From assembly GCA_964187785.1 (NCBI GenBank), contig OZ076415.1, positions 65,348,001 to 65,412,000 of the forward strand: a stretch of DNA of 64,000 nucleotides, read 5' to 3'. This document shows, piece by piece, positions 1-49,693 of this stretch. The DNA is from Amphiscolops sp. MND2022. Lineage: Eukaryota. The notes beneath the pieces are model-generated. The model had not been told where the DNA came from and did not search any database. It saw nothing but the letters and a program-made list of their open reading frames with translations. The position numbers were made by a program, and so were the translations under genes. Within the stretch, counting starts at the first letter, position 1, and each line of letters starts with the position of its first letter.

Positions 1-244
1 GCTCAATACCTACATGCAACAAAATTACAAGTTGCAAACCTCTCCGAACAACTTGAGCATGAAAAGAACCTAGGAAGACAACAGGACAGAAGTATTCAGT
101 AACTCCAAATTGTCGTTCAAACCTTCACACCATTAATCAAAAAAGGAAACAAGTATATCTACTGTTGAACAACCTGTAAATACTCCCCTTCTTACCTTTT
201 CAGCTGAACCGGAATCAACAGGCACACAAAGACGACTTGCTGAA

Positions 245-7628: not shown

Positions 7629-7642
7629 GTATTGCTGACCAT

Positions 7643-9222
7643 TGTCGCACGCATGGGTAAAATTTGTTTATTAGTTTTAATCTGTCAAGTCCTTGTTTGC
7701 ATTTTACAAGGTACTATCTCGCGACGGTTCTGTTATTGATTTAACAAGTATAAGTCCCAACAAATAAATTTGCAACTTACTAATAAAGGGGGTGCCTTGC
7801 GCTTACGTGCGGACAAAAGAAATTGCGTGAGTCGTGCAAGGCAGTGGTTGTAAATGAGCTTCCTGTTTACTGAAAATGTATGGTGAATAAATATGTTTAA
7901 TTACGAATGAGTTGAGAATATTGAAAGTGGACAATTTCTGGACATAGCCATATCTCTTGCAATTGTTACAAATCTCAGATTAATAAAGATTACAACTTCA
8001 TTTTACAAGAAGAAGTAATATAACTTTTACAATTTATCATTTAAGAAAATGAAACTATTTACAAATAATGAGAATTTCCCTTTTTCTTCGGAAATCTTTT
8101 TCTCAAACAAAATTTACAAATCCGTACTATTTTAAACGGAAGAGTTTTGATTTAGATGTCTCTATTCAGTAGAAAGTTGAATAGCATTAAGACTTTTTCA
8201 TAATATAGCACTTTAAAATTTCAATCATCCCTTTTCTTATGTGAGTTTAAGTAACGTCAACCTTATAGAACTATTTAGTTCTAGTGAAAATAATCAAAGT
8301 TAAAGTTTTGTCAACCGCAGAATTGAAATCAGCGGAAAATAGCTAAATTTGAAGTTTTGTCAACCGCAGAATTGATATCGGCGGAAAATAGTTAAAGTCA
8401 AAGTTTTGTCAACCGCAGAATTGAAATCAGCGGAAAATAGCTAAAGTTGAAGTTTCAGAGAGAGTGAAATCTCTACTGAAAGGTCTAAATAGTCAGACTC
8501 ACCAAACCGGAGACGAAATTGAAGAGAAATTTCTAAGTTAGAAATTTCTTGTAAGGGAAGATTGGTTCTGGAAGTTGAAGTTAAATCAAGGATGAGTGGA
8601 GAAATTTTCTAAGATGCAAGGGTAGGATTAAAAGAGAATCATTGGATCTGAGTTATAAAGCAAGAAGTTTTGTTGAGTTAAATAGGAATCTGAATTGAAA
8701 TGTGAAGGCGAGAAATAGACTTTCTAAGTCTGAAGGGGAAGATAATAGTAAAGGGAGAGGAAAGGGGGTAAAGTAAGAAAGAAGTGCAGGGGTGAGGGGA
8801 GAGAAGTGGAAGAGAAGTGAAGAGAAACGAGAGCTTTTAAGTTTAAGCTCTGTCCGTTTCAATAAGTGTATGAATCTCCTCGCCTGCGTTGGCCGTATAT
8901 ATACAGCCAAGCATTTCTTATCGTGCGCTGCGTAGCAGGCATGGCTTATCTTTCACCAATCATAGTTGGTTTCATATTTCAAATATACGCGGTATAATAT
9001 AGAATTCTTCACTTGTGCAATTCCTTTCTCGTCACAGTACTTCATCATCATTATTACCATCGTTATGGCCGCCGCCTTATGGCCGCCATCTTCATCTACA
9101 ACTTTCTCCCCCATAAACAAACGTTAGTTCTAGTTCATGTTTGTTTCTTTATTTGTTAATTAAATATAAACTGCACTTTAGCACCTAATTATGTTTGTTA
9201 AAGCGTTAGTCATAACGCGACA
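7643..9222 (-). repeat. 3' LTR (1580 bp)
   Basis: Direct repeat of 23951-25530 with three substitutions spotted by eye; TG...CA termini. Confidence 0.97.
8303..8449. repeat. Three tandem 49-bp repeats inside the LTR (also 24611-24757)
   Basis: AAGTTTTGTCAACCGCAGAATTGA... starts at 8303, 8352 and 8401; each unit has a CCGC...GCGG inverted pair. Confidence 0.9.
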
Positions 9223-9259: not shown

Positions 9260-10197
9260 TTATGGGTCAGACTGAAAGAAGGGGGAGTTATGTAGCGCGA
9301 GTGACTGAGGGGAAGGTTCCTTAAATTTGATTCTAAATATTATAGAGTCATTGTTTAGGAATGCTTCTCTGAAGTTGCAAGTAACTTCGTATGAGGGATG
9401 AAGTCTTCTTTGAGGAGGTTCGGGTGCGTGTAGAGATTGTGAAGGGTATCTTCGTGGTTGTGGGGGTTGATTGGGAAAAGTGTGGACCACTTGTTGCCTT
9501 CGTCCTTCTGATCAAGTATTTCGACTTCTACTGTTTTATCAAAGGGCCATGTTTGTGGGTGAGTGAAGTCGCTATAATGAAGTTCACAGCTAATAGAAGA
9601 GTGGGTCCCACGGAAGATGTTTATCCCGTAAGGGAATATTCTGAAGGAAATTTTGCAGCCTGATAGGTATGTTGGGTAAATAGGGCTCGCGAAGCTGTTT
9701 TTGATGTTGTGAAAGGGATCGTCTGGAGAGGTCCTTGCTTTTCGGTAAAGTGTGGAGAAGGCGGAAACTTGCCAAGTGATAAAATCTTTACCGTTCGCTT
9801 CAATCTGGCTCGCTCTGCTAAGGAGGGAGCTTTGGTGTTTGATTGTCGCTCGCAAATCGAAGATAGTGACTTCCAATTGTTGACGTTTATCTCGTGCCTC
9901 TTCGATTGAGGTACATAGCAGTTTGATTCGGTTTTCTAACTTCTTTTGGGGTTGATTAATGTCCGTTAAAGGGAAGGACTTTCGAAGCGGTGTGCTTTTT
10001 GTTCCCTGGTTATAGGTACTAGTTGATTTCTCCCATTCACTAATCCACATATTTAGTCTTTCCACTCCTTCGAGGTTTGCATGTTCTTCTTGATCGTTTT
10101 CTTCAGGCATAGGTGGCCAGTCGGGGTTAGGGATCGGTAGGTAGGGTTTGTGTTTTGGGATGAAGGGGGTGGCATTTGGGTTTAATTTTTGGCTCAT
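9260..10197 (-). CDS. Accessory protein: PAM2 motif + coiled coil + TRAF-C/MATH domain (one frameshift near 9370-9390)
   Basis: N-terminus QKLNPNATPFIP. TRAF motifs ITWQVSAF, FASPIYPT, IFPYG and TWPF lie in ORF 9355-10197. The last TRAF strand FLNNDSIIFRIKF lies in the overlapping frame 9260-9490. Confidence 0.8.
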
Positions 10198-10775
10198 TGT
10201 GCAGATATGGATCTTAAGGGAACTGTCAGCCGCTGTCCCTTCAGTGCAGGGTTCTCAATAGTGTATTCTTGTCTTTTGTTGTCCCAAAAGACGATTTTCC
10301 AGGTTGAAAACTGTGGGAGTAGAGAATACTTTAGGTTTGCGTTAAACCTAGGTTTTTTAACGTATCTGGCTTTTCTAGTGAAGTATTCCCTTTTATGTTG
10401 CTTATGTAAGGGTGCTTCATCGGCTATCTCGTTGTTCCATTCATGATAGTGTTTTTGTGGTGTGGTTCTTCTGATGTCCTTTCCACCAAATCTAGGAGGA
10501 TGTTGTGTTGACGGGATTGGTGGTATGTCTCCTGTGAATGACAAAGGAAAGGGGAGTTGGTCGGATGGCGTTGGTGTGAAGGTTGGAGTTGGAGATTTTG
10601 AGGGTGATGATGGGACCGTTGAGTCAGGGGGGTCGGGAAGGAAGGTAATTGTTGTAGACGAGTCTGGTGTCAAAAAGTCTGAAGGAGATAGGGGTTCGAT
10701 TTCTAGGTCACTTTCTGGGATAGGATCCAGGGTATCGTCGTCCAGGCTTGGTAGGTCGAATAGTGGTTCTAGATT
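10194..10775 (-). CDS. Accessory protein exon (acidic/Pro-rich N-terminus, basic C-terminus), probably spliced
   Basis: The frame is open from 10775, directly after a TTAGTTTACTTTTAG acceptor-like site, with no ATG. The stop overlaps the next ATG (ATGA at 10197-10194). Confidence 0.6.
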   Translation of the reverse strand, partial: NLEPLFDLPSLDDDTLDPIPESDLEIEPLSPSDFLTPDSSTTITFLPDPPDSTVPSSPSKSPTPTFTPTPSDQLPFPLSFTGDIPPIPSTQHPPRFGGKDIRRTTPQKHYHEWNNEIADEAPLHKQHKREYFTRKARYVKKPRFNANLKYSLLPQFSTWKIVFWDNKRQEYTIENPALKGQRLTVPLRSISAQ

Positions 10776-10821: not shown

Positions 10822-12969
10822 TTATATTGGAGCTACGAAGCTCTGTACTGAGGGATAAAGTGATTCTTCCTTATTCTTCAGTGCTTGGAGTTCTACTTCT
10901 TTTCCATTATCTTCAGTTTTCGCGTTTTTATCTTCAACGCTATCCTCGTAAGGGGCCCGCGGGGTGAATACAGAAGTTAAAACTGAAGTAAAGAAAAGAT
11001 TGTACGAAGCACTGAGCAATGTTTTAGTGAAGCTCAGTGTATTACCTGTGAGGTGACGAAGTTCAAAGTATCGGAAGACGAGTACCGTGATATCTATTAC
11101 GAACTTAATGAAAAGAAAGGCGCCAAAATACGCGCCGCAGAGTTCTAGTACGTAAGATATACTTCCAAATGTTTCAAGGAACTGATTTTTGAAGTAATCG
11201 GGTGAGATCATGCCGTCAACATAAAAATCTGTACGGGGTGCATAATACGCGAAAGATTCAGGTCCACTATGGGCCATTGAGGGTGTGATGAGCTCTCGTG
11301 AGAACTTCTGGAGGGCGTTGCGAGACGCTGCGCTGATGAGGATGTTGTCCCAAAATTCTGAGAGTTGTTTAGGCGTATACATTCCCGCGTCTTGTGAACC
11401 AGGGAAGGATCTAGTAATCATTGGTTGTATGTCTTTGGGTCCGAAGATAGCAGGTCGGTCGCGATGTTCGGGTGAAGGAGTGAGGGTAAACCAGGAGTCT
11501 TTGTCTTCCATATCCAATTGAAAGAGGTTCTTAATGCGATCGCTGCAATTTTGGGCGTTCGCGTTAGGATAGGTCTGTCGGGTGATTGGGTCCACGAAGG
11601 CAACCACTCCTTTGTAGAAGATGGGTATGCGGTCGTAGCATCGGTTCATCGTGTGAAGAGGTGAGTGGGATTCCGGACAGTGGTAGAGCCAAGCGAGGCT
11701 GCCATCTGTGTTCAGGAACATTGAGCGATTTCCCGTGAGCATGTATCCGGCGAGGCGAGGATTTTCCATTGATAGCATCAAAATAGTAAGGATTTGAGTT
11801 CTTTCTTGTTCGCATTGTGCTTTGAGGAGCTGGATTTCTGAAGCTTCGAGGAGACGAGTGCTCTCAAAGAAGAGATAATCAAGCTTTGTCCCTTGGTGTA
11901 ACTCGTAATCCATGTTGAGGTAATGAGGTGTATTAGGGTTGGGGTCGCTCGGGCCTCGAAAGAGGTGGAGTCGGCCATTACCAGAACCATCTTCGGGTGA
12001 ATAATATTGTAGTTTAGATGTCTCTCCCATGGAGATGCCGAGTCGTCTGCCGGACGTCATGTCGAAGCCACCAAGTTGGATTGAAACGTACAGGGATTCG
12101 TAGTTGGTCGGGTATACATCGTCTGGTTTGTTGCAATACTTTTGTGGTCTGTTGTAGACTTCGAATAAAAATTTGGTAGTGGAGTCGTTGCCGCTTACAA
12201 TATAGTAGTTAGATCCGTGTTTGATCATGTTCACGATTTCTTTCCTATGTACTGCAAGCACGCAATTATCGGGCTCCGCCCATGTGTAGGCGTATGGGTC
12301 CAGTGACGTCGTTTCGCAACCTAGTTGTTCTAAGGGGCAGGGAAGGACCATCTGAAACGGAGTCAGGACTTTTCCATCTCGAGTTTTTACTGATAATTCA
12401 GCATCTTGGATGTGAGATTCGAATGTTTCTCTTTTGATCCAGCCACCTGTCTTGCATTCATTTCGGGTATCTGGGTCGCGTACACCGTCCCAACTCTTTC
12501 CGTATTTGGCGTTTCTCGTCTGTACTTGTTTCACTCCTTTCTTAAATTTGAGGGGTTGTCCATGGATTATGACTTCTTTGCCTTCACCCATTGCCTTGCA
12601 GGTTTCGGGTGACAGGGAAAGATCGCTGGTGATTCCGTCGTGTAGGATTGACATACTGGAGTGGTCGTGATAACCACAATGCCATTCTTCACTCTGATGT
12701 TTCACACGGCACATAGTGGCGTTGATAGTGCGGCGGAAATGTTTAGTGTATAACGTTACGCTCGCACGACTTACCTCTAAGTTTTCAGGTGCCACATTGC
12801 ATTGTTCAACTTGATTCAATGCGTAGAGTTTATTTTGGGTCATTTCGCCGCAGTCGAAATGAGTTACTCGCAGTTTTTTAGCAACGCTAGCGAGGTTTGG
12901 CGTTGGACGTTGTAATATCACAACGGGCGCGTAATGGGCGCATAAAAAGAGTAAGTAAAATAATTTCAT
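10822..12969 (-). CDS. env: Envelope glycoprotein, chuvirus-G-like (class III fusogen-like)
   Basis: N-terminal signal peptide; Cys pattern HFDCG...C...MCRV......HCGYHDHS; N-glycosylation sequons; C-terminal hydrophobic TM segment; TTTCAG acceptor-like site 2 nt before the ATG. Confidence 0.8.
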   Translation of the reverse strand: MKLFYLLFLCAHYAPVVILQRPTPNLASVAKKLRVTHFDCGEMTQNKLYALNQVEQCNVAPENLEVSRASVTLYTKHFRRTINATMCRVKHQSEEWHCGYHDHSSMSILHDGITSDLSLSPETCKAMGEGKEVIIHGQPLKFKKGVKQVQTRNAKYGKSWDGVRDPDTRNECKTGGWIKRETFESHIQDAELSVKTRDGKVLTPFQMVLPCPLEQLGCETTSLDPYAYTWAEPDNCVLAVHRKEIVNMIKHGSNYYIVSGNDSTTKFLFEVYNRPQKYCNKPDDVYPTNYESLYVSIQLGGFDMTSGRRLGISMGETSKLQYYSPEDGSGNGRLHLFRGPSDPNPNTPHYLNMDYELHQGTKLDYLFFESTRLLEASEIQLLKAQCEQERTQILTILMLSMENPRLAGYMLTGNRSMFLNTDGSLAWLYHCPESHSPLHTMNRCYDRIPIFYKGVVAFVDPITRQTYPNANAQNCSDRIKNLFQLDMEDKDSWFTLTPSPEHRDRPAIFGPKDIQPMITRSFPGSQDAGMYTPKQLSEFWDNILISAASRNALQKFSRELITPSMAHSGPESFAYYAPRTDFYVDGMISPDYFKNQFLETFGSISYVLELCGAYFGAFLFIKFVIDITVLVFRYFELRHLTGNTLSFTKTLLSASYNLFFTSVLTSVFTPRAPYEDSVEDKNAKTEDNGKEVELQALKNKEESLYPSVQSFVAPI

Positions 12970-13037
12970 TTCTGAAATTCTTCAGTCTTTGACAATCAAT
13001 CAGGAAAAATGTTTTTTATAGATATGTGGATCCACGG

Positions 13038-13517: not shown

Positions 13518-13862
13518 TCAGCTGTAGTTATCACTGATTGATTTTAGACTGGGAGAGTGTTTGTTACGTCTCTGAGCGTCGAGGAAATCGATTAACTTGC
13601 TGAGGAGATGAAGGGTCAGAGGGTGAACGTGATCTAAGTAAGCGATCTCCCTGTAGTCGGTTAGCGCCTTCGCAAGATCTGCTGCTTCTGTCGAGTCTGT
13701 GGCGACAGGGATGAGCCAATGTCCCGTTTGATGTGGTCGGAGGCTGTGGAGTTCAATCTGAAGTGCGGGGGCGCTCTCTTTCCAGGCTATAGAGAGGATC
13801 TCAAGAAGTGTGTTTGTTTCCGGGTGACGCCAGAGGAATTTGAGTTGTATTTTAAACATCAT
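13518..13862 (-). CDS. Small accessory ORF (paralog family), likely ATG at 13862
   Basis: Overlaps the stop of the upstream ORF by 11 nt; shares an S-x-x-x-A-x-L-x3-L-x2-Y pattern with its neighbours. Confidence 0.6.
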   Translation of the reverse strand: MMFKIQLKFLWRHPETNTLLEILSIAWKESAPALQIELHSLRPHQTGHWLIPVATDSTEAADLAKALTDYREIAYLDHVHPLTLHLLSKLIDFLDAQRRNKHSPSLKSISDNYS

Positions 13863-14247
13863 AGGTCTCAACTAGGGTGTGAAGATATTTGATTCTAACC
13901 TCTTCTTCAAAGGGGTTAGTTACTAGGGTGATATCCATAAAATAAACCAAGTCGTCGAAAGCCTTGTCTTTAAGGACGGCGGGGTGTTGGAGTATGTATT
14001 GTTGGAACGATAGGAATAGGTAGGCGTATTCCTTGGACCCGAAGTGAATAGGGAAGAGGACTAGTGCTTCTTTGTCTTCTGGTGTGAGTATACGGACTTG
14101 TATCGCCGAGGTAGTGATCTCGTAAAAGATTGACTGTATTTCGTATTCACCCGTGAGTTGTATGGGTTTCCAAGGAACCGGAGGTTGAAATTGAGTGTGG
14201 AAGTAGTACTTATTTCCTCGAAATACGGCAACTGCGGGAGAGGACAT
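13852..14247 (-). CDS. Small accessory ORF, 131 aa (paralog family)
   Basis: Its ATG overlaps the upstream TAA (TAATG at 14249-14245). Confidence 0.65.
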   Translation of the reverse strand: MSSPAVAVFRGNKYYFHTQFQPPVPWKPIQLTGEYEIQSIFYEITTSAIQVRILTPEDKEALVLFPIHFGSKEYAYLFLSFQQYILQHPAVLKDKAFDDLVYFMDITLVTNPFEEEVRIKYLHTLVETYDV

Positions 14248-14468
14248 TAAAGGACTGACTTGGCTCTTGTGAAGACTTCGGTAGGTGTGTTATTATATAG
14301 TAGACTCTCCAGTAGTGGGTAGATAGGTGATGCTGGCACACACGTGTAGGTTTCACTCTCTTCTTCTGCGATTGCGTAGGCTTGTATGATTATGTTCTGT
14401 GTTGAGGGTTCCTTCTGAATATCAGTTATCTGGGAAAGTCGGTTGTCAATTTTGAATATTATGATCAT
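14247..14468 (-). CDS. Small accessory ORF, 73 aa
   Basis: TGATG overlap at its start and TAATG overlap at its end. Confidence 0.55.
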   Translation of the reverse strand: MIIIFKIDNRLSQITDIQKEPSTQNIIIQAYAIAEEESETYTCVPASPIYPLLESLLYNNTPTEVFTRAKSVL

Positions 14469-14635: not shown

Positions 14636-14727
14636 TTTTATATCTGATGACTAAGTTGAATAGTGATACATATATGGTTGACTTCAATCAATAATTATAA
14701 ACACTTTGCATGACTTTAAATAAATCA
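14636..14727. promoter_or_regulatory. Candidate internal bidirectional promoter
   Basis: TATAAAA on minus at 14642-14636, TATAAA on plus at 14696-14701 and Inr-like TCA at 14725-14727; divergent ORFs on both sides. Confidence 0.35.
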
Positions 14728-14742
14728 AATTTGTATTTAGGG

Positions 14743-15405
14743 ATGAGCAACAACAACAACAACAACTATAGCGACTATTACGAAGAATCCTCGACCGATG
14801 AGGAGACTACTGCTCCAGGGTCTGTGTCGGGCACTGCCGCTACCTCTTTGCCGCCACAATCGTCGTCGTCAGCTGGGCCGTCCTCGTCGAGCGGAGCGCG
14901 CACCAGTTCTTCTGCTCCCGCGTCATCAGGTTCTCAGGCAGGGACCTCTGGGGGTGGGTCTTTTGTGGCGTTTGTGGCCCCGAGGACTAGTGGCCCTTTT
15001 CCGCAAGCTCCCTCTACCATCTCGCAGGGTGTTTTGGAGAGCCCGGGGGATCAAAGTTTTATGGGTTTATTTACCCATAGGGATATCGACCGCCTAGAAA
15101 ACTGGGCTTCATTAACTAGTTCCCTTCAGGGTACCCCCGGGTTTTCTGTTTCTGGGCCTCCCGGTCCAAATGCTCTAACTAGTTTCTTGCGGGCTAACTG
15201 GGGGGCCCGTTGGGAGCAGACTCTCCTGTCCTCTCTCGGCGAAATAGTCGTCTTCCAGCTGCGAGCCTACATAAGTGGCTACTCGCAGCTGACTAGTTTT
15301 GAGAGGGGTCAGTGGACCCGCCTCTATTCATTGTGGACAATGGGGGAGCGGGCGGCTCAGCTGCGGCGACTTGCAGAGAAGGGAGGTTTCCTGGAGATTG
15401 AGTAG
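14743..15405 (+). CDS. Antisense accessory gene (Ser/Gly-rich N-terminus, helical C-terminus)
   Basis: Long ORF opposite the element strand in a region with no minus-strand ORF; TATA upstream and AATAAA at 15532-15537. An alternative ATG is at 14710. Confidence 0.65.
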   Translation: MSNNNNNNYSDYYEESSTDEETTAPGSVSGTAATSLPPQSSSSAGPSSSSGARTSSSAPASSGSQAGTSGGGSFVAFVAPRTSGPFPQAPSTISQGVLESPGDQSFMGLFTHRDIDRLENWASLTSSLQGTPGFSVSGPPGPNALTSFLRANWGARWEQTLLSSLGEIVVFQLRAYISGYSQLTSFERGQWTRLYSLWTMGERAAQLRRLAEKGGFLEIE

Positions 15406-15572: not shown

Positions 15573-15998
15573 CTAGGAGCTAGGCGAGGAGATAGTAGAA
15601 CAGCAGAATAAGTCTTTTTGTGTGTTAGGTAATGAAGGTTGTAGGTCAGGTATCAGGGTAGGCATGTAGGATAGTAGTTCCTCTAGGATAGGGTCATGGT
15701 GGGTGACGGCATAATAGGCTAAGTGTTGATATAAGCGGGCGAAAGTAGGTGATTCTGGGTGTATATGAAGGTTAGATTTTCTAGGCGTAGGTTGTTTATG
15801 TGGGCTAGGATCTGGGTCGTTGGAGTAGAAACAAATTCTAACTATTTTGTTTTTGTAGGTCCAGTAGATTTTAGTAATCGTAACCTGCAGAATTCCTAAG
15901 GACTGGAGTTCTCGCGGGACTTGCCAAGGCAAGTTTAGATAGACTTTATGGCACGGCATAGTAAGGTTATTCTTTGTAACCAATTCTAGTCCTTTCAC
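15573..15998 (-). CDS. Small accessory ORF after pol, 141 aa (paralog family)
   Basis: Overlaps the pol stop by 32 nt; LHIHPESPTFARLYQHLAYY resembles FPIHFGSKEYAYLFLSFQQY of ORF 13852-14247. Confidence 0.6.
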   Translation of the reverse strand: MKGLELVTKNNLTMPCHKVYLNLPWQVPRELQSLGILQVTITKIYWTYKNKIVRICFYSNDPDPSPHKQPTPRKSNLHIHPESPTFARLYQHLAYYAVTHHDPILEELLSYMPTLIPDLQPSLPNTQKDLFCCSTISSPSS

Positions 15999-18900
15999 GA
16001 AGTATGGACTGTCGTGCTGGTTGATTGGGTTGTGCTCGCTGATAACGTGGATTTCTCTCTATTTGGCGGGCAACAGCCTTTCGTAACTCTTGCAAGGGAG
16101 TCGTTGACTTGGTAGACGATGCCGGGGTGTTAGTTGGGGGTGCTGGAGTTGGTTGACGTTGAGTTAACGTCAGGATAGGGGTTGCTGCGTTTTGAGGATG
16201 TGATGTCGAAGGCTGATCGGGAGTCTTGGGAGTTGACAACAACTGATTTTCTGGAGAGATGATACCAGAGTCTGTGCTCTGGGGGGTTTGCGTTCTTTTG
16301 CGGGCAAGTATTTGGTTTTGTTGATTCCGTACTGGCAATATGGAGAGGTCTCCGAGTTTTTGTGGTTCTGAAACATTAAGTTGTTCAATTCTTCCTTTGA
16401 CAAGATTGTTATAAAAATCCGTGTCTCCACGGTGGGGAGTAGTGTATTCTTCGATAAGAGGGGGGAGTGTTTCTTCTTTAGGAAAGTATTCTATTAGATG
16501 GTTCCTATGTACAGTTCGGAGATTCTCGGGGTTTTGATCTTCCATTATTTGGTAAGTTGTATTTGTAATTCGTTTGGTAACCGTAAAGGGTCCTAGTCGC
16601 AGTTGTTGGAGTTTTTGGCTTTTGGAGAGGTCTTTTCGATGGTTCTCTAGCAGAACCTTTTGTCCAATGTTGAGGTGGTTCCCAAGTTTAAATCTGTTCC
16701 TGTAGGCGTGTGATTGAGCTGTTTGTTTTCTGCACTTTTCATATGTGGATGAGTAGACCTTTTTGAAGGCTGTTTCTCGTTCCAATAAGCTTTGTGATAG
16801 TTGTGGTCGTAATAGTCCATTTAGTAGTTCGTTTTTGACTTGGTTTTCGCTATGGCAATGAGGAGGTAATCCTTGACAGAATTGTGATTTGCAGTTCTTG
16901 TTTTTGTTCCTGTAGAGTCCCAGCTTCAGACTCATAGGTATCTGTGGTTTATTGCAAAACACTATCTCGTAGGGGGTCTTTCCAGTCGTGTAGTTGACGC
17001 TTGTGTTGTGGGCGAATGCAAATTTGGCAGCTAGTTGGGCCCAGTTGTTTCCTGATTCGTTTAGGAAGTTTCTCCAGTATCTTGCAATGTGTTGATTTTG
17101 AGTTTCTACTTTGCCATTTGTCCAGGGTGAGTGTGCGGTTCTTGGTCGAAGTGTAATGCCAAACTCTTTAGTCCAATTGACGAATTCAGTGTTCACGAAA
17201 GCTGTTCCTCTATCATGTACGATAGATTGAGGGATGCCATAGTGCATAATCCATTTTTCCATCGCATTGATTGTAGATTGTGCTCCTGTGTCTCTGACTG
17301 GGTATGCCATCAGGTAACGTGAGAAGGCGTCGATGATCAGAAGGCAATGTGAATTTCCACGACTGGGAGGATTGAGTGGTCCTTTGTGATCAATGTGGAT
17401 GGTTCTGAATACTTGAGTTTCGGTTTCGCAGTCTTCCAGTGGGACTTCGTTGTTTCTCCGTTGTTTGGATTTGTTAGATTGGCAGCTAACACAATCTTGT
17501 GTGAGGGCACAGATCCAGTTGTGCATCCCTGGCCAGTAGTAAAATCTCTTAGCATTGAGGAAGGTCTTTTCTGCTCCCATGTGGCCGCCGAGGTCGTTGT
17601 AATGTCCCATACGAAAGCAAGCTAAAAATAGAGAGAGAGGTAGACAGATTCTCAGATTCTCGTCTGTTGGGTCATCAGTTGGCTCGTTATAACAAAGGAG
17701 GTTTCCTTGGCCTTCTATAGATAATCTGTCGAATTCCTGAAAGTAACGCATGAGGCCTTTTGAGTGTTGTAACTCTGGTGATTTTGGTTCGGGTTTGTTT
17801 CCTGTTCTTACCCATTGTCGGACCACGCTGAGTACCGGGTCATTTATTTGTTCTTGTAAGATCGTTGTAACGTTTAGTTCTACTTCTTTGGATAGTTTAT
17901 CAAGTTGTCTGACAAGTTCCTGTGTTGGTGTCTTTTGTTTTTCAGTTGAATTTGTAGGTAGATCGAGGTGTTCTATTGCCTTCGCGTTTTTGGGAAGACT
18001 TGGGTTACGTGCGATGGGATCTTCTGTGTTGAGCTCGTAGTTGGTCTCGTTTATTTCTTGACTCTGATTGTCTGTGAGGGCTTCGTCATCCGTATCACTG
18101 TTGATGGAGCTGTAAGTGTTTTGTGATAAATCCGAAGTGCTATCCCGTGTTCCTGACCTGATTCTTAGTTCTTCGAATTTTCCAAGTTCTCTTCCAGCGT
18201 CGAGGCAACTCTGTGCTGACTCTACTTTCGGCAGGTTAGGTTCTTCGTAGATAGAGTTAACTGTGAAGTTATTCCCATCATTTTGGAGATGAAGTACTTT
18301 CCGTTCTTTTCCCTTCTCGTACAAGATGGGGTAAAAGTCGTTCTTGGATGTCTCTTCATTTTCTTCGTGTTTGATTTTGTAGTGTACTTGGGTTCCATGT
18401 TCGTCGAAAAAGTGTATGTCAGTTGGGATGACTTTGTGACTGAGTTGATGTTTCTTGTGTTCCTCGATGGAGACGTTTCGACTGAGTATGTCAGGGAAGG
18501 CTAGGTTGCTTCCTGGAGTCCAAATTATCTTGAGATTCGGGAATTTAGATATAATTACTTGGTACCTGAAAAAACGGGGTGAAATTTGTCCCTTTCTTCC
18601 CCAGAGATAAAGAATCGGCTTGTGATCGCAGTATAGGTAGATGGGGAAGGGAGATCCGATGATGTAGTGTTCATACGTCTGAAGAGCTGAGACTATGCCA
18701 CATAATTCTCTGTGTAGTGTGGACATCTTTTGTTCTTCCTTTGCGAAAACTCTTGAGTTGAAGGAAATGATCCGTTTCCCTTCTGGGAATTGTTGGATGA
18801 GGATACATCCTGTCCCAACGTTTGACGAGTCGACGTGTATGTGAAAGGGGTATTTTGTCGAGGGTATTGCGAGCACTGTGTCTTCGGTAATTCTTTTCTT

Positions 18901-21477
18901 TATTTCCTGGAAAAGGTCTTCGTGTTCTTGGTTCCAGCAAAAATTTGTATCTTTCTTGGTGAGTTCGTAAAAAGGTCGACTATCGACATGAAGATTCTTG
19001 ATGTAGCAGCTATAGAAGCCCAAAGCTCCTAAGAAGCTTTTCACTTCGGTTTTGGTCTTTGGTGATTTGAGATTGTGTAGGTCTTTTACTCGTTTTGCGA
19101 CAGGTTGTATTCCTTCGGCTGCTATCACGTGTCCCAAAAACTTGACTTTCCTTAAGAAGAAGAGTGTCTTATCTGGTGCTGCCTTGAGTCCGGCTTTCCG
19201 CAGTAAGTTATGGTATTCTTGAATTACCGTGAACATTTCTTGTTTGTTTTTGGCTTGCATCAACGTGTCGTCGATGTATGTAATTGCCTGTTTCCTTTTG
19301 ATGAGGGGTTCGAAGTGGATAGTCATCATTCTGCTAAAGAAGCTTGGTAATCCCTTGAGTCCATAGAATCCCCTGGTGAAGGTGTATTGTTTTCCGCCAA
19401 TGATGAAGCTGGTGAGTTTTTGCGTGGGCTCGTCTAATGGGACTTGGTGAAATGCACAGGAGAGATCACTTACTGAGAAGATGTTTCCATTTATTAGTGT
19501 CATTATGGTTTGGATCGGTTCTAAGGGCCAGGAATAATTTGTTAGATCTGTCACCGAGTTTAGATATCTCGCATCTATGATCAGCTTGACATAGTCATGT
19601 TTTGGTTGTAGTATAATAGGATTCACAAATAAGGATCCCATTTCTTCATCGTCGCCCATTTCTCTGATGATATCAGCGTCTTTGAGTTGTGTGAGTAGCT
19701 TCTCTAGCTTTTCTCGTAGGTGAAGTGGTACTTTGCTGGGTCTCTGTCTCTTTAGAATTGCTCCAGGTTCTAGTTTAATGTTAAATTTTTGTCTGGTTTT
19801 CCCTACGTCAAATTTGTGTTGGGAGTATACATCTCTTGCGTCCATTAGTAAGTCTATTAGGAGAACCAGTTCTTCGTCTGTGAGGTCTGAGTAGCGAAAG
19901 TCGAATTCTTTAATGTATCGCACTGCTTCCTTATTTTGATACTGAAGGTAGTACTCGATCAGTCGTTCGTTGTCTTCTTTTGGCCTGAAGATTTTAAATT
20001 GCTCATCGCAGGGTGGTTGACAGGACTTTGCGTCGCTTGTGAAGTCTGTCTCCAGCTCTCTATGTTTGAGATGAAATTGCTCGGAAAATTGTTGTATCTC
20101 ATCTTCTAGTACGTATTCGGGGTCTCCTCTTGTAGTCATGGCATAGACATCTAGTTCGTTTCTTGTATAAATTCGGAGTTGTATTTCTGAGTATGCAAAT
20201 ACGTCTTGAATGAGTTGAGTGACGTCTTGCCATTGGAAGTCTTCTAGCTCTGAGGCTTCCCGTAGCATGGATATAGTTTTGATGCCGCTCATTTTGGCGT
20301 GTGCTTTTAGAGTTTCGAGAGATTGAACTAGTAATTGTGGGTCAATCTTGTCTTTTGATTTTGCTTTCGTAATCAGAACATATATAAATCGTTTCAGAGT
20401 TTCGTCCCAGTAGGGTATGGTTTCTCCTTTCTGTGGTTTCTGTTTTGCGCATGTATCCTTAAGTGAAGGTATTTTCGTTAGGATTTCTTTTGAGAAGCCT
20501 TTGGCTGGCTTTAGGTCGGCCGGGACGAAGATGATGATAGGGTCTGGTCTGCTGAGTATTGTTTTCGAGTTTCCTCCTTCTATTCTGAGGCAATCGTTCA
20601 TATCTTGTGAAGGAATGGTAGAGTGTAATAGGAAACAGTCGTTGTATTCTTCGTTTTCGTTTAGGATAGCATATGCGAGTTCTGTCGGGTTTCTAATTTG
20701 GTATTTCGGAATTTCTTGGTCTAATACGTCAAGCATTGAGTATCCGATAGTTCCTTTTACTAAGGTGATTGTATGGTTTTTGTTGTTTTCCATGACGATT
20801 GGTAAAGTCTTCTCAAATCGTGTGCAGAGGACATTTATGAAGTTAAGTCCAGTAGAAACTGCCTTCCTGTTCGGTAGGAACGTAGATCCAGGAGGAAATG
20901 AGTTATTAGTGTTTTCTGGTGCGAATTTGTAACATCTTGTCGTCTTTGGTTCGATATACATTGAGTGAGGAATTCTGACTGAGAGAATTTGTGATATATA
21001 GGGGTAACATTTGTTGAGTTGTAGGCTACCATAGCAGAAAGTATTTATAAGTCTTTTGAGTTCTATGCCAGGAAGATCAAAGTGTATTTTGTTAACTTGT
21101 TCTTGGCAGAAATTCATTCCAAGGAGGTTTTGGGTTTTCATCTCTGTTATCCAGACTGTTAATGGGAAGTTATGTTGTCCATCGGAATCGTAGTAGAGTT
21201 TGAGGGTGATGTATCCCATCATAGGGATGATCTGCCCAGAGTAGTTCCGTGTTGTGTTATTGCTTCTACTAAGTTCTAGGTCTTGTTGAAACTGGCAAAG
21301 TTCTCTAAAGGTCCTGTAGTTGATGATTGAAGATGTTGCCCCAGTGTCTAGTAGAAATTCGATTTCTAAGCCACTATCTTTTTGTGAGTCTCCGGCAGCA
21401 AAATAATAAAGATTAAGACTAAATTTTAGAGGGGCACTGCTGCTATTTCTATTTTTCGGAGACCTTAGTAGTTTAAA
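15967..21477 (-). CDS. pol: Pol polyprotein: protease, macrodomain, reverse transcriptase, RNase H, integrase
   Basis: The frame is open upstream of the track ATG (21222) and includes LLDTGA at 21348-21337. It has RT YIDD, RNase H VDSS/DHKP, integrase HHCC (H.....GH...CVSC), the D,D(35)E-type core IHID/HDRG/KVETQN and a GPF motif. Confidence 0.97.
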   Translation of the reverse strand, partial: FKLLRSPKNRNSSSAPLKFSLNLYYFAAGDSQKDSGLEIEFLLDTGATSSIINYRTFRELCQFQQDLELSRSNNTTRNYSGQIIPMMGYITLKLYYDSDGQHNFPLTVWITEMKTQNLLGMNFCQEQVNKIHFDLPGIELKRLINTFCYGSLQLNKCYPYISQILSVRIPHSMYIEPKTTRCYKFAPENTNNSFPPGSTFLPNRKAVSTGLNFINVLCTRFEKTLPIVMENNKNHTITLVKGTIGYSMLDVLDQEIPKYQIRNPTELAYAILNENEEYNDCFLLHSTIPSQDMNDCLRIEGGNSKTILSRPDPIIIFVPADLKPAKGFSKEILTKIPSLKDTCAKQKPQKGETIPYWDETLKRFIYVLITKAKSKDKIDPQLLVQSLETLKAHAKMSGIKTISMLREASELEDFQWQDVTQLIQDVFAYSEIQLRIYTRNELDVYAMTTRGDPEYVLEDEIQQFSEQFHLKHRELETDFTSDAKSCQPPCDEQFKIFRPKEDNERLIEYYLQYQNKEAVRYIKEFDFRYSDLTDEELVLLIDLLMDARDVYSQHKFDVGKTRQKFNIKLEPGAILKRQRPSKVPLHLREKLEKLLTQLKDADIIREMGDDEEMGSLFVNPIILQPKHDYVKLIIDARYLNSVTDLTNYSWPLEPIQTIMTLINGNIFSVSDLSCAFHQVPLDEPTQKLTSFIIGGKQYTFTRGFYGLKGLPSFFSRMMTIHFEPLIKRKQAITYIDDTLMQAKNKQEMFTVIQEYHNLLRKAGLKAAPDKTLFFLRKVKFLGHVIAAEGIQPVAKRVKDLHNLKSPKTKTEVKSFLGALGFYSCYIKNLHVDSRPFYELTKKDTNFCWNQEHEDLFQEIKKRITEDTVLAIPSTKYPFHIHVDSSNVGTGCILIQQFPEGKRIISFNSRVFAKEEQKMSTLHRELCGIVSALQTYEHYIIGSPFPIYLYCDHKPILYLWGRKGQISPRFFRYQVIISKFPNLKIIWTPGSNLAFPDILSRNVSIEEHKKHQLSHKVIPTDIHFFDEHGTQVHYKIKHEENEETSKNDFYPILYEKGKERKVLHLQNDGNNFTVNSIYEEPNLPKVESAQSCLDAGRELGKFEELRIRSGTRDSTSDLSQNTYSSINSDTDDEALTDNQSQEINETNYELNTEDPIARNPSLPKNAKAIEHLDLPTNSTEKQKTPTQELVRQLDKLSKEVELNVTTILQEQINDPVLSVVRQWVRTGNKPEPKSPELQHSKGLMRYFQEFDRLSIEGQGNLLCYNEPTDDPTDENLRICLPLSLFLACFRMGHYNDLGGHMGAEKTFLNAKRFYYWPGMHNWICALTQDCVSCQSNKSKQRRNNEVPLEDCETETQVFRTIHIDHKGPLNPPSRGNSHCLLIIDAFSRYLMAYPVRDTGAQSTINAMEKWIMHYGIPQSIVHDRGTAFVNTEFVNWTKEFGITLRPRTAHSPWTNGKVETQNQHIARYWRNFLNESGNNWAQLAAKFAFAHNTSVNYTTGKTPYEIVFCNKPQIPMSLKLGLYRNKNKNCKSQFCQGLPPHCHSENQVKNELLNGLLRPQLSQSLLERETAFKKVYSSTYEKCRKQTAQSHAYRNRFKLGNHLNIGQKVLLENHRKDLSKSQKLQQLRLGPFTVTKRITNTTYQIMEDQNPENLRTVHRNHLIEYFPKEETLPPLIEEYTTPHRGDTDFYNNLVKGRIEQLNVSEPQKLGDLSILPVRNQQNQILARKRTQTPQSTDSGIISPENQLLSTPKTPDQPSTSHPQNAATPILTLTQRQPTPAPPTNTPASSTKSTTPLQELRKAVARQIERNPRYQRAQPNQPARQSILRERTRIGYKE
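21387..21477 (-). promoter_or_regulatory. -1 ribosomal frameshift signal (UUUAAAC + downstream stem)
   Basis: The slippery heptamer T TTA AAC lies in the gag frame at 21477-21471 and pol is in the -1 frame. A 6-nt spacer is followed by GGTCTCCG pairing with CGGAGACT and GCAGCA pairing with TGCTGC. Confidence 0.8.
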
Positions 21478-22919
21478 GGGCGGAAATCGGCAATAGAGTT
21501 CACCGAGTAGTCGGTTTCTAAGAACTGTACTGTGTTGGATCTTCCTATGTCATTAGTTTTTGGGAATCTTTGCTCGTAAGATTGAGTTGGAGTGTTGGGT
21601 CTTTCGTTTCTGTCTAGTGGTCTTTGAAAAACTGAGTTATTTCTTGGTGGAAGAAGTTGTATGTTGCGATTAAAGGAGCTAGACTGGTCTCTGTTGAAGT
21701 TGAACGGAGATCTTGCTCTTTGGGGTCCGGGGGAAACACTTCTGGAGTTGTTAGAATTGTTTAGGAAGGGTTTTCTCCCTTCTTGTGAAAATCTTTGGTT
21801 ACCAGGATTGACTCTTGTATTCGTAGGTCGGCGTTCTGGGTTGAAATTTTTTCTTTGTGGTCTATCGTATTGATTCCAGGCAGGGTTTGACTGCATAGCT
21901 CCAGCCAGTGCTAGTTGATGTGCCACAGCCATATGTTTTCTGATTTCTGAATCTGGTAATCTTGGTTGAAATCTAGAGCCATGTTCAGGTCCAGTTCTTT
22001 TGTTGTAGTCGTTGGTGAATGTTATTCTTCTTTCTGGGTTAGCTTCGTTTTGAACCTTCTTCACTTCTTCATCTCTCATCTTCTTTCTGCACCAGTTAGG
22101 TGTGTGCCCATTTGTTCGGCAGTAGCCACAGAATCGTGTGGCCATTCTTCGACCTGTAGCATTAGGGTCTACAGTTTTCTCTACTGCGTTGATTGTGTTA
22201 TTCATCTGTTCTTTGATTTGTAGTTTGATTCCCTTCAAGTCGTCTCGCATTTCTTGTATGAGTGGGTCTGAATGTGATTCTCCGCCAGTTAGGGCGGTAG
22301 TTACCGTGTAGGAGAGGTCTTTGTTTATTACAGCTTGGGAGAATTGTTCCCAGGTTGCATTCGGGTGATCCATTAAATATTCGTGTGCCTTTTCTCTTAG
22401 TTTTGGAGGTCTTAGGCCTCTCAGTGAGTAGTCGATGCACCTTTGTCTTCTTTGTCGGTCTTGTGCTGCTCTTTCTGCGTTTCTGTCGTTTTGTGCGACG
22501 CCGGCAAGATCATCTGGCCAGCCTTTCCCCACAACAATTTTGATTCTGTGTAGAAAATTCTTTATCTCTTCTCCATCTCTTCTGGTGACATGTTCTGCTT
22601 CCATTCTGTGTCTGAATTTATTTCGGCCATCTGCGAATCTTGTGATGAACCTTTCTCTGATTTCTTGCCAGGTGTTAGCGTCTGTGATACTTGTCTCGAA
22701 CCACTCCGCTGCTGGTCCTCTTAGTAGTGTAGCAAAGTAGGATTTTCTCCTGAAGTTGTAGTCGTCAAGTGCTGCTCCGTTTGCTGGGGTATCACCATGA
22801 GAGAAACGGAACTTCTTTTCAATTAGCTGTATAAATTGTTCAGGATCTTGATCTGGGTCTGTTCCCGTGAATTGGTCTCTGCCGAGGTCTGGATAAGCCA
22901 AGTAATTTTGCGCAGCCAT
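21465..22919 (-). CDS. gag: Gag (capsid + CCHC zinc knuckle)
   Basis: Ty3-like LRGPAAEWF capsid motif; CGYCRTNGHTPNWC = CX2CX4HX4C. Confidence 0.95.
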   Translation of the reverse strand: MAAQNYLAYPDLGRDQFTGTDPDQDPEQFIQLIEKKFRFSHGDTPANGAALDDYNFRRKSYFATLLRGPAAEWFETSITDANTWQEIRERFITRFADGRNKFRHRMEAEHVTRRDGEEIKNFLHRIKIVVGKGWPDDLAGVAQNDRNAERAAQDRQRRQRCIDYSLRGLRPPKLREKAHEYLMDHPNATWEQFSQAVINKDLSYTVTTALTGGESHSDPLIQEMRDDLKGIKLQIKEQMNNTINAVEKTVDPNATGRRMATRFCGYCRTNGHTPNWCRKKMRDEEVKKVQNEANPERRITFTNDYNKRTGPEHGSRFQPRLPDSEIRKHMAVAHQLALAGAMQSNPAWNQYDRPQRKNFNPERRPTNTRVNPGNQRFSQEGRKPFLNNSNNSRSVSPGPQRARSPFNFNRDQSSSFNRNIQLLPPRNNSVFQRPLDRNERPNTPTQSYEQRFPKTNDIGRSNTVQFLETDYSVNSIADFRPLNY

Positions 22920-23929
22920 TGTGAGCTATTGAGATTATAAAGGATAGAAGATGAAGCAAAGAACAATAAGCCAAAGACTCTATGAGGTATGATACTCTTG
23001 GCTTTTGAGAATAACAGCAAAGAGTTAAAGTAAAAATTGTTTGTACTATGATTCTAATAGTGATAATTATTAGACAGGTCTGACAAATCATAAAATCCTT
23101 AATACGCTGCTAGCAAAAATGAAAATAACACTTCTCGGTCGAAGTTAGGCTCATTTCCTATATTTCGTACTCTGATTCCACAGTTTAGGGGATACTTACA
23201 AATCCCAGTAGTGTTGAGATTATCGTAAAAAGGGTAGTTCGGGGTATACCAATCCTCCGAGTTAACCCAAAGAAAACCTATGAAGAGTACAGTCAGTCCA
23301 CTAGGTCTTTCATCCGCTCGTTGAACCTTTCTTTAACTTTAGGAAAATAACTAGTTCACAGAGGGAGTTACTCTCGTCTTTAGGATTAAGTGCGTGGGGC
23401 CCAGATCACTATCATGCAATCACTTGGGTACTATCACTAGGATACTAGGTTTCCCACTCGGAATGCTACATAGGTTCCAAGATACCCACTGGGCTCACGG
23501 CCTTCAAACAGCCTCCGAGGAGACCTAGGCGGGCTTTTACTTAATTTGTGTCCGTCCGGACTAGAGTGAATTTCCCAACTGTGCCTTTAAATAAAGCGTA
23601 TAGAGTCAGTTTCATTCTTGTTTAGGACTGATGGTAATCTCATAGTATTTTCGTAAAGGTAAATCATTTCTAACAAATGGTTTTGGGGATTGAAAGAAAG
23701 AGAGTAGTGCATAAACTCTTCCCAAAGCTGTTAGGCTGGAGAGATTCTGTTAGAGTATTTACTAGCAGTTTTACGATTTATATAGATTAGAGAAGCCACA
23801 TATTGAGGCAGTAGGAGAAAGAAGAAAATTAGAAGTAATGTTAAGAGAAATAAGTAAGTAACCCTTACTTCTGAGAGTAGGGATTCTAACAGATAGCTCA
23901 TTTACTTCTCTATTACAAGAGAAAAAGTA

Positions 23930-23947
23930 GCCTCACTGGTCGCACCA
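23930..23947 (-). promoter_or_regulatory. Primer-binding site (18 nt)
   Basis: TGGTGCGACCAGTGAGGC begins after a 3-nt spacer following the 5' LTR; its complement ends in CCA like a tRNA 3' end. Confidence 0.85.
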
Positions 23948-23950
23948 GTT

Positions 23951-25530
23951 TGTCGCACGCATGGGTAAAATTTGTTTATTAGTTTTAATCTGTCAAGTCC
24001 TTGTTTGCATTTTACAAGGTACTATCTCGCGACGGTTCTGTTATTGATTTAACAAGTATAAGTCCCAACAAATAAATTTGCAACTTACTGATAAAGGGGG
24101 TGCCTTGCGCTTACGTGCGGACAAAAGAAATTGCGTGAGTCGTGCAAGGCAGTGGTTGTAAATGAGCTTCCTGTTTACTGAAAATGTATGGTGAATAAAT
24201 ATGTTTAATTACGAATGAGTTGAGAATATTGAAAGTGGACAATTTCTGGACATAGCCATATCTCTTGCAATTGTTACAAATCTCAGATTAATAAATATTA
24301 CAACTTCATTTTACAAGAAGAAGTAATATAACTTTTACAATTTATCATTTAAGAAAATGAAACTATTTACAAATAATGAGAATTTCCCTTTTTCTTCGGA
24401 AATCTTTTTCTCAAACAAAATTTACAAATCCGTACTATTTTAAACGGAAGAGTTTTGATTTAGATGTCTCTATTCAGTAGAAAGTTGAATAGCATTAAGA
24501 CTTTTTCATAATATAGCACTTTAAAATTTCAATCATCCCTTTTCTTATGTGAGTTTAAGTAACGTCAACCTTATAGAACTATTTAGTTCTAGTGAAAATA
24601 ATCAAAGTTAAAGTTTTGTCAACCGCAGAATTGAAATCAGCGGAAAATAGCTAAATTTGAAGTTTTGTCAACCGCAGAATTGATATCGGCGGAAAATAGT
24701 TAAAGTCAAAGTTTTGTCAACCGCAGAATTGAAATCAGCGGAAAATAGCTAAAGTTGAAGTTTCAGAGAGAGTGAAATCTCTACTGAAAGGTCTAAATAG
24801 TCAGACTCACCAAACCGGAGACGAAATTGAAGAGAAATTTCTAAGTTAGAAATTTCTTGTAAGGGAAGATTGGTTCTGGAAGTTGAAGTTAAATCAAGGA
24901 TGAGTGGAGAAATTTTTTAAGATGCAAGGGTAGGATTAAAAGAGAATCATTGGATCTGAGTTATAAAGCAAGAAGTTTTGTTGAGTTAAATAGGAATCTG
25001 AATTGAAATGTGAAGGCGAGAAATAGACTTTCTAAGTCTGAAGGGGAAGATAATAGTAAAGGGAGAGGAAAGGGGGTAAAGTAAGAAAGAAGTGCAGGGG
25101 TGAGGGGAGAGAAGTGGAAGAGAAGTGAAGAGAAACGAGAGCTTTTAAGTTTAAGCTCTGTCCGTTTCAATAAGTGTATGAATCTCCTCGCCTGCGTTGG
25201 CCGTATATATACAGCCAAGCATTTCTTATCGTGCGCTGCGTAGCAGGCATGGCTTATCTTTCACCAATCATAGTTGGTTTCATATTTCAAATATACGCGG
25301 TATAATATAGAATTCTTCACTTGTGCAATTCCTTTCTCGTCACAGTACTTCATCATCATTATTACCATCGTTATGGCCGCCGCCTTATGGCCGCCATCTT
25401 CATCTACAACTTTCTCCCCCATAAACAAACGTTAGTTCTAGTTCATGTTTGTTTCTTTATTTGTTAATTAAATATAAACTGCACTTTAGCACCTAATTAT
25501 GTTTGTTAAAGCGTTAGTCATAACGCGACA
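23951..25530 (-). repeat. 5' LTR (1580 bp)
   Basis: Copy of 7643-9222; candidate TATATATA at about 25205-25212. Confidence 0.97.
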
Positions 25531-25923
25531 CCATTTAATAATGTAACAAAAACTTCTCTTTGTTTAACCGTTAGACTATGACGTTATACATGGCGTTATT
25601 TTAAGTACGTAATTACAAATTATAACCATAAACAGTTATTATCCAGCTTGGACTTATATTTACCAGGTCACGACGTGCCCTGTGGAACCTGGGGGGTATA
25701 CACAATCATGCAATTTGTTCCAACACTACAGACATTTTCGAATAGGTTTTATAATGATCAGTAATCCTGATATGAAATTATTACAAAGTCAAAAGAACGA
25801 AAATGGTCAGCACTACATTTACAGTCACATGAGGTAGTGAAAATCACTGATCGAGAAAATATTGACCTATTTCCTGAAGAATTACGAGTTCAAATTCTGG
25901 TCTTTCGAGAGGCCTAGCAGCCG

Positions 25924-26880
25924 GTGAGTATGGGGGTAGTAAAGAAATTTGCCGAATATCGCGAGGGCTTGGTTGAAGATGCCGAAAGTGTAACAGCTAT
26001 TCGATACTCCAATTCGGTTAAAATTTTCCTCGCACAGTCTTTACAAGCAACTGATGATTTCAGAGAGTCGACCAAACTTGCCAGCTTCGTTCGAAAATAT
26101 GTTCAGGAAAGAGGTCTTTCCAAAGCTAGTGTCATCAGTTATTCATCCACTCTCTCAACATTTTTGGACTTTTTGGATGTCCACGGTCGGAAGACCTTCC
26201 CACATACTAACGATGTCTCTTGGCAGAAAGTCCTCAAGGAAATTCGGATTCTTTTTTAGAAGTCAGCACAAAGAGAAAAGAAAGATGCAAAAGCAGAAAT
26301 TTTCAAAAGTTCCCTCCTTCCAGGAAGTTCAGTTGTTATACAAACTTGTCATGGAGAAGTTAAACGAAGACAGTGAACTTAAAAACTTGACTTATAAAGA
26401 CCTCATGGTTTTTAATATGTTCATTTTGACAGTAAGGATTAATTGTCGTTCAGGACCTCTACTTTCCTTGTCTTGGGACGACGTTTACAAAATCAAAGAA
26501 CTCAGTTTCATTGAATTCGACCGGCACAAAACCAGTGTCGCATACGACGTAAGCATCATCATAGAACCAGAGCAGTTTTCGTGGCTAGATCGGTTAAAGG
26601 AACAGCATTTTGAAGAGTTTGGAGTCAACTCGTCCATGGTGTTTCCATCTTCCACCAATGGGATGGAGCATAGTTATGCGAGGTTTTTGCGTCAAGTTGT
26701 CCTTCAACGTTTTCCTGATGTTTCCCACGAAAAGATTCTCACTCACACTCACTTCGAAAAATGTGGGACACCTATTTGGATAAGAACCGGGACCTAATTC
26801 CCTATTCCTTACGGCGGATGCATTTGAAGCAAACCGGACATAGTGAAAGCACGAGTAGTCATAAAACTATTTCTTGTGAT
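25924..26880 (+). pseudogene. Tyrosine recombinase pseudogene 2 (Crypton-like), frameshifts near 26255 and 26745
   Basis: Core-binding-like segment (SYSSTLSTFLDFL), NCRSGPL (R at 26447), HKT (26525) and VFPS, then in a shifted frame HSLR (26746-26757) and TGHS (26833-26844). The catalytic Tyr was not located. Confidence 0.75.
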
Positions 26881-35198: not shown

Positions 35199-35845
35199 CT
35201 GAACGAACAGATCACTTCATTGATGAACCAACCCAGTGGTTTCTGGACCGCTGCCCAGGCGAGGTGGACAACATCACTCCTTGGTTTCAGTCACAGATTT
35301 CTTCGCAGAGGTGGCCGAACTTGGTGGTTAAAGTACGACTTCAAAAACGGTCTTTTTAAATTTTCGAACTGATGAAAAACTTCAATCATTCAAAACATCG
35401 AGATTGTTGATCGTTCTTTTTTCGCTCGAAAATGTCTGATTCTACCTAGTCAAGTTTGCTTACAGGCTTCTACAATTCCCAATGTCGGTGCTGGGCTCTT
35501 CGTCAGATGGCAGGCGTACAAGAAGAACAGTGCAGTCATAGATTACCATGGCAAGTACGTCCGCCAGAGCTCAGTCCGTCCGAGAAGCGGTGCGGACGAA
35601 ACGTACCACATGGAGCTACCCCCTACGTGCAGTATTGTTTTATGTAGATGCGAGCAATAAATGTTATCGTCCGTCATCAAATATTACCTAAAGGTCGTTA
35701 TATAAACCACTCGCACACACTAATCTATTTCCTGTTTCCTGTCTTCTTTCCCTGTAATTGTCATTTTTGCCTCTCGATATGTAAAAAAAGGGGGAAGGAA
35801 CTCTTCTTTCCGTACTCCTCCCACCACGATTTTGGTGCTACTTGA
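35199..35845 (+). pseudogene. SET-domain gene exons (first unit)
   Basis: Exon 35199-35332 (..WPNLVVK), a GT..AG phase-0 intron, then an exon from 35466: ASTIPNVGAGLFV, VIDYHG, YVDAS, GRYINHS and ELFFPY; frameshifted. Confidence 0.8.
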
Positions 35846-49540: not shown

Positions 49541-49693
49541 AAATATTAGAATACTATAGAATGATAACAGCGTAATAATAATATCTATAGTATTGTAGAG
49601 TATAGTAGTAGTTGCAAAGTATGGGTTGTAAGTAATTGCGTTAAGCAATGTATAGAATAACAGAGTATAGTTTAGTAGGTGTATTGTTTAGTA

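Follow-up and report, generated by a model that had tools for sequence, protein, structure and literature searches.

A TARG1-type macrodomain with a remodelled ADP-ribose pocket, kept in the Pol polyprotein of a Ty3/gypsy-type element from Amphiscolops sp.

Introduction

Capture of a macrodomain by an animal long terminal repeat (LTR) retroelement has a precedent in ray-finned fish, whose epsilon-like endogenous retroviruses include members with macro domain open reading frames (ORFs) (Basta et al. 2009, as related in the review PMC4977317). The present case comes from a Ty3/gypsy-type element on the minus strand of a 64,000-nucleotide stretch of the genome of Amphiscolops sp. MND2022 (assembly GCA_964187785.1, contig OZ076415.1, positions 65,348,001 to 65,412,000), which is called the window here and in whose coordinates all positions are given unless a locus is named. 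According to the review, the fish domains are encoded by additional ORFs of Retroviridae, whereas the macrodomain of the window is an in-frame part of a Ty3/gypsy Pol polyprotein and its pocket has been remodelled. It resembles human TARG1 (OARD1, C6orf130), but the pocket is probably dead and the domain retained for its structure or its protein contacts.

Several other described systems share features with this locus. The “ancient errantiviruses”, which are env-carrying Ty3/gypsy elements (PMC13524379), have the same gag-pol-env order, occur in young multicopy families and encode a viral-type fusion glycoprotein; the terms “macro” and “ADP” do not occur in the main text of that paper. The macrodomains with which coronaviruses and alphaviruses counter PARPs are likewise macro folds within viral polyproteins, but they score far below TARG1 in Foldseek comparisons with the window domain, and their activity has been tested while the window domain is predicted to be inactive. 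TARG1-like folds also occur in invertebrate RNA viruses. In orchids, a Ty3/gypsy retrotransposon has fixed an AlkB m6A demethylase, again a host enzyme that erases a mark (PMC9289625); as described there, AlkB forms a separate ORF and was shown to be active, whereas the window domain is part of Pol and one branch has lost the pocket. A literature search, with Repbase and subscription journals outside its range, found no paper that describes a domain of TARG1 type within the Pol of a Ty3/gypsy element. Retroelement-captured macrodomains were known before; what is new here is a conserved branch of probable pseudoenzymes next to intact sisters.

Identity and fold of the domain

The macrodomain (20161..20574, minus strand) covers amino acids 326-463 of a 1860-aa Pol, in frame after the Pfam protease match (aa 60-149) and ahead of RVT_1, the reverse transcriptase (RT) match (aa 685-809). 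It was delimited by sequence search, pocket alignment, a structure model and Foldseek. When a 147-aa segment was compared by phmmer with the PDB sequences, five of the nine matches were chains of human TARG1/C6orf130, with E of about 1e-11, and the remaining four had E of 0.55 or more. The domain is 26 % identical to human TARG1 (PDB 4J5S, 4J5R, 2L8R; ALC1-like class), and Pfam gave no match inside it at E ≤10^0, i.e., at E up to 1. A model built with an alignment of 80 rows reached a predicted local distance difference test score (pLDDT) of 89, and TARG1 chains took ranks 1-8 of its Foldseek search (best E 3e-11, template-modelling score 0.83, root-mean-square deviation 2.1 Å), with DarG, Poa1p and viral macrodomains below them. 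Sequence and model together thus point to a minimal macro fold closest to TARG1, within the TARG1/ALC1-like fold class.

An earlier sequence-only reading had proposed a TARG1/OARD1-like macrodomain embedded in Pol between protease and RT. The residues which it quoted lie in the minus-strand ORF 15967-21549, and the phmmer matches, the order of the Pfam domains and the Foldseek ranking bear the assignment out, with a macro fold present in the predicted structure. The place it gave (20164-20550) was also right, although the N-terminus of the domain reaches slightly further. It also suggested a survey of related Pol proteins; the domain, with canonical motifs, is carried by a second family of the same genome and by four related Pols (P0158-P0161), all described below.

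The pocket

Human residue numbers were taken from the PDB alignment and agree with the peptide 119-134 as printed in PMC5928194. Residue frequencies refer to 128 outside homologues, obtained from 150 matches by keeping the 140 aligned over at least 100 aa and removing 12 fragments of the same lineage. The window domain shares with human TARG1 the fold, Lys84, Gly43 and core residues; unlike TARG1 it lies within a retroelement Pol, and HCxS, Met40, Pro118 and IGCGLD have been replaced. Ten pocket positions are altered in the family to which the window belongs (family A). In the first pocket segment (20506..20532, minus strand), the homologue alignment places Ile, Phe, Pro and Pro at His32, Cys33, Ser35 and Met40. 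The motif HCxSxD, which is conserved among the homologues and which we take to have a role in the pocket, reads IFVPAD in the window, so that only its Asp is retained. The former diphosphate-binding and catalytic loop, IGCGLD in human TARG1 (120-125), is replaced by EASELE (20242..20259, minus strand), which puts a Glu on Gly123 (20248-20250). The family-A residue occurs in none of the 128 homologues at His32, Cys33, Ser35, Met40, Pro91, Pro118, Ile120 and Gly123, in 6 at Gly121 and in 8 at Cys122. At Asp125, where the window has Glu, 125 homologues have Asp and a single one Glu. Residues of the fold are retained in family A, namely Gly43 (126/128 in the homologues), a Trp (126/128) and Lys84 (127/128), the latter encoded at 20365..20367 (minus strand) and located through the PDB alignment and the family-A loci. 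The loop of family A is acidic (Glu108, Glu111, Glu113 and Asp114 in domain numbering).

Among 40 family-A loci, ten of them older and diverged, Glu stands at position 123 in all 39 that cover the site, and a search for intermediate pocket states in the ten older loci found Gly at 123 in none of the nine that cover it.

What these replacements would mean can be judged from work on the human protein. Lys84 of TARG1 forms a covalent intermediate which Asp125 resolves (bioRxiv 10.64898/2026.03.31.715305); the review PMC7050489 gives residue 125 as Glu125, but the PDB sequence has Asp. As reported in PMC5928194, TARG1-G123E is folded and stable, gains no stability from ADP-ribose and shows no activity towards modified ARTD10. 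The window thus carries naturally the very change that was engineered to kill TARG1. Since Glu at Gly123 is joined by nine further pocket changes, and since G123E abolishes binding and catalysis in TARG1, the ADP-ribose pocket is likely dead. Judged by its residues, the domain would not be classed as a TARG1-type hydrolase: it has Lys84 and lacks Asp125, the Gly123 loop and HCxSxD. The sequence-only reading had correctly described the retained lysine, the change of Asp to Glu and the replacement of IGCG by EASE, as the PDB alignment shows, but it overlooked the loss of HCxS, Met40, Pro91 and Pro118.

Families and descent

A search of the genome with the window domain yielded 944 candidates, 150 of which were scored. 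Among the matches listed (150 of 152), at least 77 are window-like and 48-100 % alike (family A), of which 25 lie within an open frame of at least 1800 aa, and at least 73 belong to family B, whose domain is 35-38 % alike to that of the window. The best 30 loci align over all 147 residues. With a family-B query, 150 scored matches were 74-100 % alike, so that this family has at least 150. Family B shares the element layout, including env (57 % alike) and MATH ORFs, and in one copy the LTR stretches are identical over 1873 bases. Its domain retains AHCISAD, NLVTK and PKIGCGLD and matches TARG1 with E 5e-24. The GDLF motif, however, is not clean in either family and both have Phe at Ile44; activity of the sister domains is therefore likewise only presumptive. 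P0158-P0161 have the domain at the same place in Pol, with HCxSAD and GCGLD retained.

A 51-row domain tree places families A and B in one macrodomain clade (support 98/92) together with three fragments and the four related Pols. The stem of family A, with 1.43 changes per site, is the longest inner branch of the whole tree. Compared with this value of about 1.4 in the domain, the stem of A measures only 0.14 in the Pol flanks; the stem of B measures 0.91 in the domain and 0.29 in the flanks. In the flanks the four related Pols are nearer to A (60-65 %) than to B (47-58 %), whereas in the domain they are farther from A (36-39 %) than from B (43-49 %). From the tree, the stem lengths and this contrast between flanks and domain it follows that the intact pocket is ancestral and that family A changed in a burst. 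A separate capture by family A was considered and ruled out, as A nests within the clade of intact sister domains.

Selection since the change

The ratio of nonsynonymous to synonymous substitution rates (dN/dS) was computed by the Nei-Gojobori method, with bootstrap intervals, for three pairs of family-A subfamilies (dS 1.0-1.2); the pair of the window and locus L044 (dS 3.4) and comparisons with L041 and family B were saturated and excluded. The domain gave 0.054 (0.02-0.10), 0.064 (0.03-0.10) and 0.074 (0.03-0.14), as compared with 0.011-0.021 for RT and 0.09-0.16 for the linker between RNase H and integrase. In family B, the domain gave 0.085 and 0.21 with wide intervals. Six family-A rows agree throughout at 84 of the 138 domain columns and at 107 of the 241 linker columns, and the domain is whole even in a subfamily that is 70 % alike and for which dS is saturated. 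The altered domain is clearly under purifying selection and not drifting. These data do not separate a requirement for folding from a new binding surface.

Possible roles of the altered domain

The sequence-only reading saw in the domain an anti-ADP-ribosylation module that may only bind or that has altered activity. An alteration of the pocket is indeed evident, but an eraser or binder of ADP-ribose in this copy is doubtful. Retention of Lys84 and Gly43, the conservative change of Asp125 to Glu and a selection on family A as strong as that on intact family B could be reconciled with a hydrolase or binder that acts through the lysine with another mechanism or substrate, all the more as ALC1-like hydrolases are variable: DarG functions without the acid and SCO6735 without either residue of the dyad (as covered in PMC7050489). 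We nevertheless regard this as unlikely, and the “binding only” variant in particular, given that G123E neither binds nor hydrolyses and comes here with nine further changes. A pocket with Glu at both Gly123 and Ile120 that has lost His32, Cys33, Ser35 and Met40 is found in 0/128 homologues, and Lys84, present in nearly all of them, is perhaps retained for its position in the fold. A nucleic-acid-binding module that aids packaging or reverse transcription has an equally low probability. RNA binding by TARG1 takes place outside the pocket and persists in G123E (PMC5928194); furthermore, the net charge of the domain is +4 to +6 in family A against -1 to +1 in family B, and basic residues at positions 11, 31, 51, 76 and 96 are invariant in A and missing from most sister rows. 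However, the intact related Pols are likewise at +3 to +6. RNA binding by TARG1 has been tied to Lys50, Arg86 and Arg126 (bioRxiv 10.64898/2026.03.31.715305), of which the window retains only the Lys; it has Thr at one of the others and, at Arg126, an Asp, the same charge reversal as in a mutant described there with reduced RNA binding.

Less probable still is that the domain might serve as a dead decoy. It would then bind a host factor directed at macrodomains or basic ADP-ribose readers and in this way still counter the defence of the host. The burst of change, the constraint that came after it and the fixation of an acidic loop would suit such a role, and the same element encodes a TRAF-type MATH ORF, itself a possible signalling decoy; but the idea is drawn by analogy, and family A shows no sign of positive selection, all dN/dS values being far below 1. 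That the domain is a functionless relic which merely has to stay in frame seems very improbable. Of the folded parts of Pol, it is the one that differs most between families A and B (37 % alike against 54-85 % elsewhere), yet the dN/dS intervals end at or below 0.14, the domain persists whole at 70 % likeness and the 30 best loci are full-length; dN/dS and conservation largely refute this explanation already.

The most probable account is that of a captured TARG1-type macrodomain whose pocket is likely dead and which stays in the Pol polyprotein as a module for structure or protein contacts, i.e., as a pseudo-macrodomain. In the ancestor, the domain would have been intact and would likely have removed ADP-ribose marks from viral protein or nucleic acid. 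Family A would then have lost binding and catalysis while the loop became acidic. By that time, the fold may have been needed for folding or processing of Pol or for contacts within the particle, and would have been kept rather than deleted. Eraser activity, if required at all, might speculatively be supplied by co-resident intact families or by a host gene. A number of observations weigh against this account. The loss of activity is transferred, on the basis of sequence, from mutants of human TARG1, and the tolerance of DarG and SCO6735 for missing catalytic residues applies here too, as does the retention of Lys84 in 38 of the 40 family-A loci. The alignment behind the confident model holds TARG1-like rows, which makes the fold match partly circular, while a single-sequence model had a pLDDT of only 51 and was left out of the fold searches. 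The dN/dS intervals of the domain overlap those of the RNase H-integrase linker, and conservation at the remodelled positions does not significantly exceed that of the other positions (12/16 invariant against 72/122, p = 0.17).

The element

The element is a young gag-pol-env retroelement of Ty3/gypsy type, as judged by its LTR ends, a 4-bp target-site duplication, the order of the Pol domains and an env-like ORF. All of its parts named here are on the minus strand unless marked otherwise. The 5' LTR (23951..25530) and the 3' LTR (7643..9222) are each 1580 bp long, with TG...CA ends; they differ by three mismatches (99.8 % alike) and are bordered by CCAT at 25531-25534 and 7639-7642, respectively. 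The family is considered young because of this similarity and because 25 of the 77 A-like matches listed lie in long open frames. A Troyka LTR retrotransposon was ruled out, as such elements have CG...CG ends and a 3-bp duplication. Three bases past the 5' LTR, a stretch that starts with TGG (23931..23947) resembles a primer-binding site.

The gag ORF (21465..22925; Retrotrans_gag above the Pfam cut-off) overlaps pol in the -1 frame, which suggests a frameshift. According to the ORF list and Pfam, pol (15967..21549) encodes protease, a conserved spacer, the macrodomain, RT, RNase H (aa 872-1003) and integrase (from aa 1308), with Integrase_p58_C and SH3_Tf2-1 matches below cut-off. The spacer, 175 aa between protease and macrodomain (20575..21099), has a dN/dS of 0.03-0.04. 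Its sequence pattern looks dUTPase-like to us, but it had no PDB sequence match at E ≤10, and the Atlas yielded nothing beyond unnamed clusters, all under 0.9. The env-like ORF of 719 aa (10822..12981) matches Monjiviricetes_fusion (PF24664, E 4e-33).

The accessory ORF at 9355..10254 has a TRAF-type MATH domain according to Pfam, with a weak match in family A (1e-6) and a strong one in family B (9e-23). It diverges fast, being 54 % alike between subfamilies whose env is 96 % alike, and is possibly a second remodelled accessory domain. Short ORFs lie between pol and env (13518-14289, 14701-15405 and 15573-16058) and after env (10194-10775), the one at 14701-15405 being antisense (plus strand). 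They are kept across family-A subfamilies; in the two family-B loci examined, only 10194-10775 matched.

Other TARG1-type domains and the rest of the window

A cellular-type query detected further TARG1-type domains in the genome. All seven loci fetched have Gly at 123; the domain lies between RNase H and integrase in three, at the C-terminus of Pol in one, after gag-protease in two and in a 315-aa ORF in one. The loci L089, L090, L092 and L091 are other gypsy families with the domain between RNase H and integrase or at the C-terminus of Pol; L090 is accompanied by a Baculo_F-like ORF and L091 has a weak dUTPase match before RT. A high-copy family (L093:4413-6917, L095:3010-5580) has an ORF of about 834 aa that comprises an N-terminal part gag-like by eye, a protease and an intact TARG1-type domain, which groups with the domains of RNase H-integrase type. 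The 9.9 kb of L093 hold no ORF of RT size, and the family may be a non-autonomous element in which the eraser was retained. The 315-aa ORF (L094:4757-5701) carries a canonical TARG1-type domain 52 % alike to the cellular-type homologue and was the top match of the query; it is a candidate host gene. Among records from outside the genome, 52 of the 150 homologue matches were scanned for context, and TARG1-type domains were seen in gypsy Pols and in an RNA-virus-like polyprotein. One 2056-aa Pol (P0167) has OTU, TARG1-type and NADAR domains, so that a single retroelement combines ADP-ribose erasers of two kinds.

Elsewhere in the window, a region with long inverted repeats at its bounds (50331-62938) contains an ORF for an integrase (54239-55285) and another, of 1411 aa, whose match is endonuclease VII-like, and presumably represents a Polinton/Maverick-type element. 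A repeat array at 34400-49700 has units of about 420, 507 and 1600 bases. A second MATH-domain ORF (137-817, plus strand; E 3e-19) lies outside the element and may belong to a related neighbour. Just beyond the 5' LTR, two overlapping ORFs (25918-26797) resemble, on inspection, a tyrosine recombinase split by a frameshift; the longer one had no Pfam match.

Implications

The presence of TARG1-type domains at several positions in unrelated polyproteins of one genome hints that ADP-ribosylation matters to retroelements, and an anti-ADP-ribosylation role would fit the sister families, which keep the pocket motifs. In family A the pocket was lost while the element multiplied and the fold stayed under selection. 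Either the element can do without eraser activity or shares that of others, or the domain has taken on another function. A broader scenario, which we offer only tentatively, is that TARG1-type erasers were captured on repeated occasions by animal Ty3/gypsy elements, as a counter to a host defence based on ADP-ribosylation, and that the present branch is a pseudoenzyme with a new binding role that relies on the erasers of co-resident families. Pfam does not detect the altered domain, so that cases of this kind are easily missed. As natural variants of about 140 aa, the intact and the altered domain can be compared side by side. If repeated capture and the pseudoenzyme reading were both true, a single genome would hold a natural active/dead pair with which to test whether ADP-ribosylation restricts retrotransposons.

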